Assembly: GCA_951406725.2 (NCBI GenBank)
Contig: OX597817.1
Span: 79,174,001 to 79,238,000 of the forward strand
Reading direction: 5' to 3'
DNA from: Octopus vulgaris
Lineage: Eukaryota
Length of the DNA: 64,000 nucleotides
Made by a program: the position numbers and the translations under genes. How positions within the stretch are numbered: position 1 is the first letter of the stretch; the number at the start of each line of letters is the position of its first letter. A model generated the notes under the pieces. It had not been told where the DNA came from and did no database searches. It worked only from the letters and a program-made list of their open reading frames with translations. Positions 4,560 through 62,933 of this stretch are shown one piece after another.

Positions 4560-5485
4560 TGAAAAAAGAAGTCAAGATAGAAAATGCTAAAATAATTTTA
4601 TAAAGAACATTTCAGTACCGGTTTCGGACATTTGAGACCTTTTCAACTGTAACTATTAAATAATTAAATTTAGAAAAATTAAAAGAAAAGTTTTTTAAAA
4701 GAATATTTGTATAGTGTTCAAATATAAGTGGTATTTTCCTTGTTTCTGCTTTTCTCTGTCTCTCTTGTTTACTCTTGTGGGTTCAAGGTCCATGTGAATT
4801 CTTGGTAGGGAAGAAGAAGGAGGAGGAGGAGGGGGAGAAGGGGACGAAGAATTTGGGATTGCCTTGATTGTCGTTGGTCAGTGGTTGCTAGCAGCTCCTG
4901 CTGTTCAATTCATGAAAATATTTCTATTGAAAGGTTTGTTTAAAGAATTTGCGTAGGTGTTATACTAAAAACCATTAGTGACAAAGTTAGGAAGAAGAGG
5001 GGGGAGAAGAAGAAGAAGAAGAAGAAGAAGAAGAAGAAGAAGAAGAAGAAGAAGAAGAAGAAGAAGAAGAAGAAGAAGAAGAAGGGAGAATATGAATGCG
5101 TGGAAGTGGGATGTTGGATGACTTAAAGTTGGCACGTTGTGGGTTATAGCTCTGATTGGGGCTGATTTTTAATGGATTCTTAAGAATGTAATATTTGCGT
5201 GTGTATTTGTGTTATTCTAAAGCTGAGGTGGATATATCGTTTGTCGTAGATGCGTTCAGAAGGGGCCTGTATTTTGTAATAAAGAGAGTTTCTTTATTTA
5301 TTCGTTGGATCGAGGTTGTATCGTCCCTGAATTGGTAGAGGGGGGAAATCCTGAAGCTTGGAGTTTTGTTGTTGGCGCAAATATCTATGTGTTGGCTGAA
5401 TGCTATTTTTCTGTTTTGAGGAATTTTTATCTGGGATCTGTGCAGGGCCATTCTTTTACGTAAACTAGTTTTGTTTGGCCTATGT
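4560..5485 (-). mobile_element. Penelope-like element 3' fragment (GIY-YIG C-terminal half plus 3' region with HHR)
   Basis: TSLRKRMALHRSQIKIPQNRKIAFSQHIDICANNKTPSFRISPLYQF...RINKETLFITKYRPLLN aligns by eye with the C-terminus of ORF 34149-34925. The element ends in a (TA)n/(CA)n tract. Confidence 0.85.
4613..4649 (-). ncRNA. Minimal type I hammerhead ribozyme, U3-A8 core variant
   Basis: Minus strand: CAG-UUGAAAA-GGUC ucaaau GUCC-GAAA-CCGG-UA/CUG. Stem I CAG/CUG, palindromic stem III ACCGGU, GUA site. Confidence 0.75.
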
Positions 5486-10323: not shown

Positions 10324-10572
10324 TATGTAACTTTTTAGATACCCTCTTAAAACCATTCCTCAAGCATGTAAAAAGCTATATAAAGGACGACCTGGATATG
10401 CTCAATTACCTTTCTGAAACAATAAACAAAACCACCCTACTAGTATCCTTCGATGTAGTCAACCTCTATTCCAATATCCTCCACAACCTAGGAATAGATG
10501 TAATTCAATTCCGGCTAGAGAATTACGCCAACAAACTCCCACAGCGCATCAAAAAAGAATTCGTGATAGGCT
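10322..10572 (+). mobile_element. Penelope-like RT fragment
   Basis: NFLDTLLKPFLKHVKSYIKDDLDML...LLVSFDVVNLYSNILH is homologous to NFLDILLKPLLKYIKSFIRDD...ATLDVINLYKNIPH of the 34-36 kb element. Confidence 0.88.
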
Positions 10573-33755: not shown

Positions 33756-33769
33756 TATATATATATAAG

Positions 33770-35851
33770 AAATTAAAAAAGGAAAATACGCACACTTACA
33801 TAGTTTTAATATAATTTTTAATATATCGACCGGTTTCGCAATCGCTATTCATGATATTATGTTTTACTTATTTGAATATATATTTTTTCGTAAGAAGAAA
33901 TTTGGTCCATGTTGTGTGTGATGAAATTCACGAGTGAATGACTTCACAAGTAGATAAATAAAGGGAGGTAATTGGTTTTTATTATTGTTATTGTTGTGGG
34001 TAAGGGAGATAACTGTTCAGCTTTCGGTAATGGCTGGGGATCATATATGTGTACAGAACAGAGACAGGTTTCAAAAACCTTGTTTAGTATGGGATTTATG
34101 TACAGTGATGTAATCGTGAATTGAAATATTTTAAAATATTAAAGTTGGTTATGCGTGCATATTAAGACGTGTTTTGTATTTTTCAATGAAAAAAGTTTCT
34201 TTATTTAAACGTTCTAGTTGAGAGATTGCGTCTTTGCACTGGTAGAGAGGGAAGACTGTGAAATTTGGTTTGATGTTACCTGCACATTTTTCTATATGTT
34301 CACTGAGAGGAATTTGTCTGTATTGCGGGAAACGGATTTGTTCCTTATGTAGAGTGGTTCTCTTTCTCAAGGTCATACTCGTTTGTCCAATGTACTGGTG
34401 TCCGCAACCCGAGCAGGTTATTACATAAATTAGGTTCTCAGAGGCACAGGTGAAACTAGTTTTAATTGTGAACCTCTGTCCTTGTTTGTAAAGGAAATCC
34501 GAGCCTTCAAGCAGGTTGGGGCAGGTTCCACAGTTTGGGTGTCCACATTTTTCAACCGTTGGTTTCGTGGTTGTTTTGTAAAGCTTCGCATTTGTTAGTA
34601 GTCTCTTTAGCGATTTGTCTTGTTTTTTGCATTTGATGAGTTTGTGTGTTTTTAGGATGTCATTCATTTTTTGATCTCTAGTTAGTAAAGGAAGAGTTTG
34701 CACAATAGTGTTGAATGCATCACTGTTTCTGGGGTTGTGTGTTGATATAAATAGTAATGTTTTGGTTTGAGGTGTGGTGCTATGTTTTTTTGTTCTTAGT
34801 GTTTTTGTGTCTAATTGTTTGGCACGTTTAATTCCCTCGTCGATAGGAGAGGGTGGATATTGTCTTTCAATAAGTGTTGTTTTGAGGTCTTGAAGACGAA
34901 GGTCCCGAGTTGTTCTATCAGACACTATTGTGCAGATCCTTTTTGCTAAGTTGAAAGGGATGTTTATTTTTATGTGTTTCGAGTGGCATGAGTTAAAAAG
35001 AACATATTGTTTTGAATCAGTTGGTTTATAATAATGTCAGTTATGATTTCATTGTTAACTTTTTTTATCATGATGTCTAAAAATGGAAGTTGTTCTTTGT
35101 TATATTCCACTGTGAATTGAATGTTACTATTTATGTCATTTAGTGTTGTTTTGAAATCCAAAAGTTTGTCGATGTTCTCCTTCCAGATGATAAAGCAGTC
35201 ATCCAGGTATCGCTTCCAATTTTCTCTTATGTAGAGGTAAAATGGGTAACCATATTTCTGAAGTGATACTTCATATAAGGTGAATTCAAAATAACCCATT
35301 ATTAGGTTCGCAAGAACAGGAGCTGCTTTCGTCCCCATCGCAATTCCGCATTTCTGACGATAGTATGTGTCATCAAATAGGAAATAATTGTTCTGAAATA
35401 TAAATTTTAAGGATTTAATAATAAAGATCTGGTTTATGTGTTCCGGGAGGACTTCGGGGTACTTTTCCAACCAGAATTTAATTGATTTTATTCCATAGTC
35501 ATGGGGGATGTTTTTGTAAAGATTGATAACATCGAGGGTAGCCAATATTGCCTCTTCATTAATCGTTTTTGTAGGTGTTCTAGCATGTATAAATCATCCC
35601 TAATGAAGCTTTTGATGTATTTCAGCAAGGGTTTCAGTAGGATGTCTAGAAAATTGCTTAGTCGGTGGGTTTCACGGGCCGGCCCAGCAACAATGGGTCT
35701 TTAAGTCAAGTCTTCTGGCGTTTGGGTATTTATATATTTGCCTGGTGATTGTTTTCAGGCTTCATTGATTATCTTGCTCTTGTGTATTTTAGGGAGGCCA
35801 TAAAAAAGACTGGGTTTACATTTGAAGTTCGTGATGTAGTCTGTTTCTTTC
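33770..35851 (-). mobile_element. Penelope-like retroelement (Neptune-like), 5'-truncated and disrupted: RT, Cys linker, GIY-YIG, 3' region with HHR
   Basis: FYGLPKIHK, RPIVAGP, LDVINLY, GIAMGTKAAPVLANL, WKRYLDDCF, LPFLD; CGHPNCGTC linker; NLIYVITCSGCGHQYIGQT..LRKR. Stops and frameshifts are present. The 3' end runs into (TA)n/(TAGA)n. Confidence 0.95.
33823..33857 (-). ncRNA. Minimal type I hammerhead ribozyme, A3-U8 core variant
   Basis: AUAUC-AUGAAUA-GC gauu GC-GAAA-CCGG-UC/GAUAU. Perfect 5-bp stem I, palindromic stem III; lies about 290 nt downstream of the PLE stop codon. Confidence 0.8.
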
Positions 35852-36249
35852 TCTAGACATCCTATTGAAACCCTTGCTGAGATCATACAACAGAACATCG
35901 TGAGTGTGTAACTTATGCCTGGAGGAAAACATGGTGTTGGCGTGTTTACGTCCCCGTAACTTAGCAGTTCGGCGAAAGAGGTAGGGTCGATCGACTAAGT
36001 ACTAAGCTTTAAAAAAAGTCTTGGAGTTAATTTGTTCAACTAAAAAAACCCTTCAGAATTATGCCCCAGCATGGCCGCCTTCTAACGACTGAAGTAAGTA
36101 AAAGTAAAAGGTAAAAGATATGTATATATGTATGTATGCATATGTGGTCACAGACATGTGTGTATTAATCATATGTGTACATTTGTGTAGTACAGATTTG
36201 TATATATCATTGTTGTGTATGTATATCTATGTATACATGCATATATGTA

Positions 36250-62462: not shown

Positions 62463-62527
<65 letters not shown>

Positions 62528-62528
62528 T

Positions 62529-62757
62529 AGGAAATGAAGAAAATGCTGACAAAATAATTTAAGTAATTTAATTAGGTGAAAGTTATTTTTACCGGTTGCG
62601 CATTTGTTATGCTTATCAAAAGATTTTTTCCTCTTATCAGATAAGAGGAAAAAAACTTTTGATAAGCATAACAAATGCGCAACCGGTAAAAAGAACTTTC
62701 ACCTAATTAAATTACTTAAATTACTTAAATTATTTTGTCAGCATTTTCTTCATTTCC
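62529..62757. repeat. About 230-bp near-perfect palindrome carrying a degenerate U3-A8 HHR in each arm
   Basis: Centre at about 62640. UUGAUAA-GCAU aacaa AUGC-GCAA-CCGG-UA at 62659-62688 and its mirror; GCAA replaces GAAA in both arms. Confidence 0.85.
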
Positions 62758-62933
62758 TTTTTTATATATCACAACTCGTGTTCCACATCTCCTTTTTTAA
62801 ATATATATATATATGCATGTATGTATGTATATACACATTCACGTTTGTATATATATATATATATATATATATAACTGTGGCTGTATATGTGCATGTATGT
62901 ATATATGTTTGTGTATATATAGATGGATCTCTT

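Follow-up and report, generated by a model that had tools for sequence, protein, structure and literature searches.

Joint Changes of the Core 3-8 Pair in Likely Hammerhead Ribozymes of Octopus Penelope-like Retrotransposons

Introduction

Do hammerhead-like motifs whose cores depart from the literal CUGANGA carry selected variants of the pair between positions 3 and 8, or are they decayed copies? The question is raised by a stretch of 64,000 nucleotides of the Octopus vulgaris genome (contig OX597817.1, 79,174,001 to 79,238,000; hereafter the window), in which an earlier note, made from the sequence alone, had pointed to the strings AUGAAUA (33852-33846, minus), UUGAAAA (4646-4640, minus) and UUGAUAA (62659-62665, plus) at the position of CUGANGA. 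All three are present as described, and the families to which they belong are referred to here as A, B and C. Positions 3 and 8 form a pair in the catalytically active conformation of the hammerhead (PMC3884650). The 2'-OH of G8 is described as essential and the G8C change as rescued by C3G (PMC8495972), and since the chemistry is done by the 2'-OH of residue 8 and not by its base (PMC8495972, PMC6155905), any isosteric 3-8 pair can in principle serve.

Hammerhead Motifs and Their Host Elements in the Window

The features of the window are collected in Table 1. The family A motif consists of a 5-bp stem I (33857-33853 pairing with 33827-33823, all on the minus strand), the core with A3 (33852), U4-G5-A6, A7, U8 (33847) and A9 (33846), a 2-bp stem II (33845-33838), G12-A13-A14-A15.1 (33837-33834), the palindromic CCGG (33833-33830), U16.1 (33829) and C17 (33828), after which the returning strand of stem I follows; the predicted cut lies between 33828 and 33827. 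The family B motif has a stem I of 3 bp and, in this copy, a stem II of 2 bp, which is 4 bp in another copy (L032) and in the family majority. Both families have the type I core N3-U-G-A-N-N8-A ... G-A-A-A ... U-H with three stems, open at stem I; literal CUGANGA is absent from both and a covarying pair stands in for C3-G8.

Table 1. Features of the window (positions are those of the window).
Feature	Position	Strand	Remarks
Family A minimal type I hammerhead motif	33823..33857	minus	35 nt; motif scan and family comparison
Family A 3' tail beyond predicted cut site	33766..33822	minus	ends in (TA)n microsatellite
Family A Penelope-like ORF, 5'-truncated, frameshifted	34149..35854	minus	RT and C-terminal GIY-YIG
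Family B minimal hammerhead motif	4613..4649	minus	U3 4646 - A8 4641, A17 4616
Family B GIY-YIG endonuclease fragment	5254..5466	minus	51% identical to family A protein
Family C hammerhead-like motif	62657..62690	plus	U3 62659 - A8 62664, A13C (62680), 2-bp stem I
Family C second copy, inverted	62588..62621	minus	U3 at 62619
Two family C 3' ends folded back head to head, with (TA)n runs on either side	62522..62790		longer tail on plus arm

The motif at 62659 is a weaker hammerhead candidate because it reads G12-C13-A14-A15.1 and only 2 bp of stem I adjoin its core. These two features, set against a conserved A13 and a stem I of at least 3 bp in type I hammerheads, are also those of the family majority; family C is a derived hammerhead-like motif. 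Most of its occurrences (L061-L090) are short fold-backs, head to head, with their centres close to one and the same palindromic point, and a GIY-YIG domain precedes one copy (L089) by 900 nt.

A loose descriptor found three matches in the window against 3.2 in 30 shuffles, a chance level that makes it uninformative alone; matches with GAAA-CCGG numbered 2 against 0.0 in the same shuffles. No C3-G8 hammerhead was found by two scans of the window, so the statement that C3-G8 occurs elsewhere holds only outside it, where the genome has 110 matches. With Rfam covariance models, the best 150 of 286 matches on the window were microsatellite-driven and no hammerhead family was among these.

The host of the motif is a Penelope-like element (PLE) of the C-terminal EN+ type, i.e., RT followed by GIY-YIG. 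In family A, the RT occupies 34970-35593 and further pieces upstream on the minus strand (RVT_1, E 1.5e-7), and the C-terminal part (34149-35036, minus) holds a CxxxxCxxC linker and the endonuclease (GIY-YIG, E 3.5e-5); the motif lies ~290 nt behind the ORF stop. Other family A copies match from about 35854, and a short inverted piece (about 35 bp) is present at the 5' junction. In A3-U8, U3-A8 and G3-C8 subfamilies alike, the motif is found 200-900 nt behind GIY-YIG domains that are related to each other. The pLTR architecture of PLEs is seen in tandem full-length relatives (L208, L209), in inverted pairs and in two alternative 3' ends: in the window copy of family A the shorter tail is found, which reaches about 62 nt beyond the predicted cut, and in many copies of the family a longer one, which reaches about 118 nt. 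None of the 20 long family A copies has a 5' pLTR or is full-length. The linker (CX2-5CxxC before the EN) and the (TA)n flanks are features of Neptune/Nematis PLEs (PMC8557442), which points to elements of that type.

Several further observations concern these elements. Another PLE RT fragment (10413-10568, plus) shares 46% identity with family A. Insertion of an element directly behind the 3' end of one from a different subfamily is frequent (L191, L198, L208, L099, L032). A splice-donor-like GTAAGT (33799-33794, minus) lies 28 nt past the predicted cut in family A and overlaps an ATG; introns are known in the 5' UTRs of PLEs.

States of the 3-8 Pair across Families and the Genome

Tabulation of family A copies gave A3-U8, and not CUGANGA, as the family consensus: the pair is present in 32 of 32 motifs of the 30 best loci and in 40 of 40 once long copies found by a DNA search through the RT region are added. 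Nor were A3 and U8 among the variable sites listed in two deep DNA-like runs of other labels. U3-A8 is the state of nearly all of the 33 family B motifs listed, with one C3-A8 (L044), and of the large majority of family C. As DNA similarity searches favour close copies, a pattern count of the 2.8-Gb, microsatellite-rich genome was added, in which the rest of the core, GAAA and CCGG were fixed and positions 3 and 8 left free, a class that comprises neither family C nor motifs with another type of stem III. The pattern matched 7,380 times and the reversed pattern 34 times. U8 occurs in 1,274 motifs, 1,210 with A3 and 64 without, and C8 in 153; in the latter, G3 was read in 21 of 30 loci, which extrapolates to about 107 G3-C8 motifs. 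G8 accompanies C3 in 110 motifs and another base, mostly U3 among the 100 listed, in 278. A8 lacks U3 in 130 motifs, leaving by subtraction about 5,435 with U3-A8. About 93% of the genome motifs are thus Watson-Crick at 3-8, and an unselected listing of 100 motifs, scored by hand, gave the same proportion (57 U-A, 26 A-U, 9 C-G, 1 G-C, 4 U-G and 3 other; 93 Watson-Crick). G3-C8 is a fourth state beyond the three named in the earlier note. Przybilski and Hammann reportedly found in 2007 that any Watson-Crick 3-8 pair is active in some type III ribozymes, with a context-dependent pyrimidine-purine preference.

The expectation that A3-U8 would escape a CUGANGA search proved correct for nearly all of the class, 7,270 of whose 7,380 motifs (98.5%) are missed by it. 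Nearly all C3-G8 matches belong to a tandem repeat of 359-360 bp without an ORF, which looks like a non-LTR retrozyme. This young repeat (L162-L190, L371-L374; e.g., C1:20002278-20004542 of G000) is the sole abundant C3-G8 motif of the class, and has U3-A8 relatives and an amplified C3-A8 branch.

That A3-U8 is a family state and not copy-specific decay is borne out by the fixation in family A together with the 1,210 of 1,274 U8 motifs that have A3. The 64 others have G (26), U (24) or C (14) by hand count, a spread that post-insertion decay would give. It can be argued that the 3-8 match itself is a product of decay, or that a few families, now dead, were founded with it by accident, considering that the copies are not independent and that each site changed only about four to six times on the tree described below. 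The joint changes on the same branches, the four pair types and the compensated stems are against this, as is the small and scattered set of the 64; the reading is largely refuted and we regard it as hardly credible.

An inverted pair within a U3-A8 subfamily (L101/L102; C1:7828096-7828240 of G000) has A3-U8 in one arm, i.e., a double change in a single copy, and is the only such case among the 100 A3-U8 matches listed. A search of metagenomes with the A3-U8 pattern gave 72 matches, of which one had both stems and none had a PLE protein, and these were dismissed as chance matches that give no ground for a wider distribution; tblastn against phages gave no match.

Joint Changes of Positions 3 and 8

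Protein trees were built with FastTree on 58 of 60 rows (two short rows were dropped) and with IQ-TREE on 22 subfamily representatives. Five motifs, whose nearest EN came from a neighbouring element, had been omitted beforehand, and the ORF-less tandem repeat, including its C3-A8 branch, is absent from the tree. We assigned to each subfamily the state of its majority; at three tips the representative is a copy with a private mismatch, and one tip has a single copy behind it. On the tree of 22, position 3 changes five times, position 8 six times and the pair jointly six times, and every change of position 3 shares its branch with a change of position 8, while the control pairs took 9 of 11 steps (3 with 7), 9 of 11 (3 with 17) and 10 of 12 (8 with 7). 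Twenty of the 22 tips are Watson-Crick, and all are paired if G-U is allowed. When two sites were simulated as evolving independently, with no fewer changes than observed, 20 Watson-Crick tips were reached in none of 59,151 runs and a fully paired set in one. One step of the tree hangs on a weak node. In a DNA tree with positions 3 and 8 masked, G3-C8 is basal and A3-U8 subfamilies are nested within this lineage, whose 3' ends are about 88% or more alike. At least four double changes result: one led to G-C, one from there on to A-U, one to A-U in the lineage of family A, and one lay between U-A and C-G.

A motif alignment of 22 rows, chosen by us to span the subfamilies, has 3-8 paired in 21 rows with five pair types. 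The Watson-Crick 3-8 pair of a type I hammerhead is found in the genome counts, the tree and the alignment. Stems I and II covary as well: 89.9% of 198 cells are paired, a value reached in none of 500 shuffles, compared to 28-49% in slid controls. Compensatory two-sided changes are seen at five of five stem I pairs and one of two stem II pairs, G10.1-C11.1 being fixed by the search pattern. None of the 22 rows departs from G5, A6, A9, G12, A14, A15.1-U16.1 or the palindrome of the dimer, at positions that the pattern also fixes. The proposal that these are selected variants rather than decay is supported by the family fixation and the joint changes on the tree. A DNA-level mini-palindrome was considered and rejected: it cannot account for one complementary pair four bases apart, and position 7 varies freely.

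The G3-C8 subfamilies have A17 and not C17, and the A3-U8 subfamilies mostly C17 or A17, i.e., a 3-17 pair is avoided there; the avoidance is not general, as U3 with A17 is common in families B and C.

In A3 subfamilies the core also reads A3-U4-G5, and one may ask whether A3 was selected as the first base of an AUG start codon that it creates, U8 following only to mend the pair or by chance. A precedent could be seen in an anole element, whose ORF begins inside its hammerhead (PMC11167929). The frames that start from A3 differ, however, among sister A3 subfamilies, whose stems II measure 7, 8, 9 and 10 nt; six of nine frames tested stop within 20 codons; and the ORF of a full-length relative has its ATG ~230 nt downstream of the motif. 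A start-codon role is poorly supported, and we consider this explanation very improbable.

Subfamilies with an Imperfect Pair

The earlier claim that positions 3 and 8 always change together and stay Watson-Crick stands as covariation across subfamilies and on the tree of 22 tips, but "always" has to be given up. Two subfamilies, both young and amplified, have U3-G8 together with a one-base slip of stem I, and U3-G8 is the state of most of the 278 G8 matches without C3; in the C3-A8 branch of the tandem repeat, arrays are 98% identical. Small groups have G3-U8 (three copies), U3-U8 (four) and A3-G8 (two). Because U3-G8 and C3-A8 subfamilies were amplified, a perfect 3-8 pair is not required for the spread of a subfamily, at least for a while. 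U-G and C-A are also the one-step intermediates between C-G and U-A, and shifts between pair types may have passed through such wobble and mismatch states, which would survive as the U3-G8 and C3-A8 subfamilies. Family C is likewise abundant despite A13C and its 2-bp stem I.

Other departures from the standard motif were noted. Several abundant U3-A8 and U3-G8 subfamilies (L197, L199, L208, L209, L210) have lost one base after the cleavage triplet, so that one additional U stands unpaired between stem I and position 3; these subfamilies were amplified all the same. A3-G8 is combined with an additional base behind A9 in two diverged motifs (L377, L378), of which one forms a clean stem I of 4 bp and the other lies behind a GIY-YIG fragment.

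Predicted Folding and Cutting

In the computed dimer, A-CCGG-U provides the palindromic, loop-less stem III between two copies that characterizes minimal PLE hammerheads. The co-fold minimum is exactly the double hammerhead in 2 of 14 motifs folded: two family-A-majority copies (L002) at -15.3 kcal/mol, with a monomer fold of +2.5, and L097 at -14.3 kcal/mol, with a monomer fold of +3.0. It is not exactly this structure in the other 12. For the window copy of family A, the double hammerhead has -13.7 kcal/mol and the best fold -16.8; the loop II change of this copy is shared with 10 of 40 family A copies. According to such models, the palindrome would join two copies via stem III, a single copy being unable to fold into a hammerhead. 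In tandem transcripts (pLTR-ORF-pLTR), the two motifs would pair and one would be cut, freeing the transposon RNA from its precursor, and the downstream motif would stay uncut when it is reverse-transcribed. Copies of family A continue for about 62 or 118 nt beyond the predicted cut, so that their template was uncut at the 3' motif.

Contigs of five runs, guessed to be RNA although none is on record as RNA, cover the family A motif. Two contigs of one run (X11) have their end at 33829, a single base away from the predicted cut; this was rejected as a sign of cleavage since contigs of three other runs bridge the site.

The main rival to a ribozyme is a hammerhead-like tertiary fold, 3-8 pair included, that selection would keep as a signal by which the RT-endonuclease protein is bound or positioned, with cutting slow or dispensable. 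It would fit the family A copies that run through an uncut site and the amplification of subfamilies with a wobble, a mismatch or A13C. Mutants of the anole element insert normally in vitro and no reads end at its cut site (PMC11167929), and minimal PLE hammerheads are weakly active in vitro (PMC4209133), as a binding signal would also allow. Against it, the 3-8 pair that is kept is part of the catalytically active conformation (PMC3884650), and the invariant core positions named above and the palindrome are the same in all 22 rows, where the pattern fixes them, but the count of 7,380 against 34 shows that they do occur together. We consider the binding signal unlikely. The reading that we prefer, and regard as likely, is that the terminal-repeat motifs of this PLE clade, in which 3-8 changed jointly into all four Watson-Crick pairs, are likely dimeric and probably protein-assisted ribozymes, and that selection acting on the source elements maintains their active fold. 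What selection sees would then, in all likelihood, be the predicted cutting of tandem precursor RNA at some copies, with help of the protein.

Relation to Known Hammerheads

U3-A8 is already in print as a natural variant, including in PLEs (PMC3088659, PMC4209133). Cervera and De la Pena described in 2014 minimal hammerheads in the pLTRs of metazoan PLEs, with a U3-A8 variant that has about 1,300 hits in Schistosoma mansoni (PMC4209133). The octopus motifs share with these the type I topology, the palindromic stem III, the predicted dimers, the position at the 3' end of RT and GIY-YIG elements and the occurrence as single or inverted copies. Among the 56 representatives given there, 53 have C3-G8, two U3-A8, one U3-G8 and none A3-U8 or G3-C8, which does not mean absence in nature because the descriptors fixed the core. 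Compared to that set, the octopus motifs have C3-G8 in only 110 of 7,380 cases, often a 2-bp stem II, and usually no additional base behind A9. Natural covariation from C3-G8 to U3-A8, 2-bp stems II and weak stems III were likewise reported by Perreault et al. 2011 (PMC3088659); unlike here, the available text names U3-A8 as the only variant and describes no retroelement clade with four states. The short-stem-III PLE hammerheads of Lunse, Weinberg and Breaker (2017) belong, by the description in a review, to the same class, with a palindromic, very short stem III and dimers (PMC6765202). From the giant squid, only Rfam hammerhead_1 hits are given in the corresponding part of PMC6962438.

The closest experimental system is the hammerhead of the Anolis Poseidon element PAc, which cuts only with the element's protein; C3G or G8C kills its cleavage and the double mutant partly rescues it (Frangieh et al. 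2024, PMC11167929). Like the octopus motifs, it is a PLE hammerhead that needs the 3-8 pair, the engineered G3-C8 form being partly active, and its two reverse-transcription start sites give a tail that resembles the two 3' ends of family A. Unlike them, it has a natural C3-G8, an ORF that starts inside the motif and a place in the Poseidon clade, as opposed to Neptune/Nematis features (PMC11167929, PMC8557442). That compensatory swaps rescue activity, taken in the earlier note as established, is confirmed for these cases (PMC11167929, PMC8495972) but depends on context: in a deep mutational scan of a type III hammerhead, strong rescue was reported only for the swap to G3-C8 (PMC9901934), which makes the 1,210 A3-U8 copies mildly surprising.

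An exact-word literature search returned no report of natural A3-U8 or G3-C8; the alignments of Lunse 2017, the largest survey, are outside this search and may hold one or the other. Within their available text, PMC13481778, PMC10085705, PMC6765202 and bioRxiv 2026.07.22.740005 have nothing further on the 3-8 pair. A bolder interpretation, which we advance tentatively and for which the case falls a little short of even, is that these are the first natural high-copy A3-U8 and G3-C8 hammerheads and are active, and that position 3-8 walked through four Watson-Crick states with wobble and mismatch intermediates still living. C3-G8 would be nearly absent, so that in such genomes most ribozymes would escape a CUGANGA census, and the joint change of 3 and 8 would be genomic proof that the active fold matters to PLEs.

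Implications for Penelope-like Elements

The role of the PLE hammerhead is debated. It is slow in vitro (PMC4209133), mutants of the PAc hammerhead insert normally in vitro, so that it appears dispensable for insertion there (PMC11167929), and one suggestion is that it may be a parasite of the element (PMC8557442). In a single genome, descriptors that fix the core can overlook 98.5% of the motifs in a class, which affects counts of ribozymes as well as statements that an element has no hammerhead. The clade also supplies natural test pairs in nearly the same flanks, G3-C8 against A3-U8 sisters and U3-A8 against U3-G8. The repeated joint change of a tertiary pair of the active conformation speaks for selection on this conformation in the source elements.
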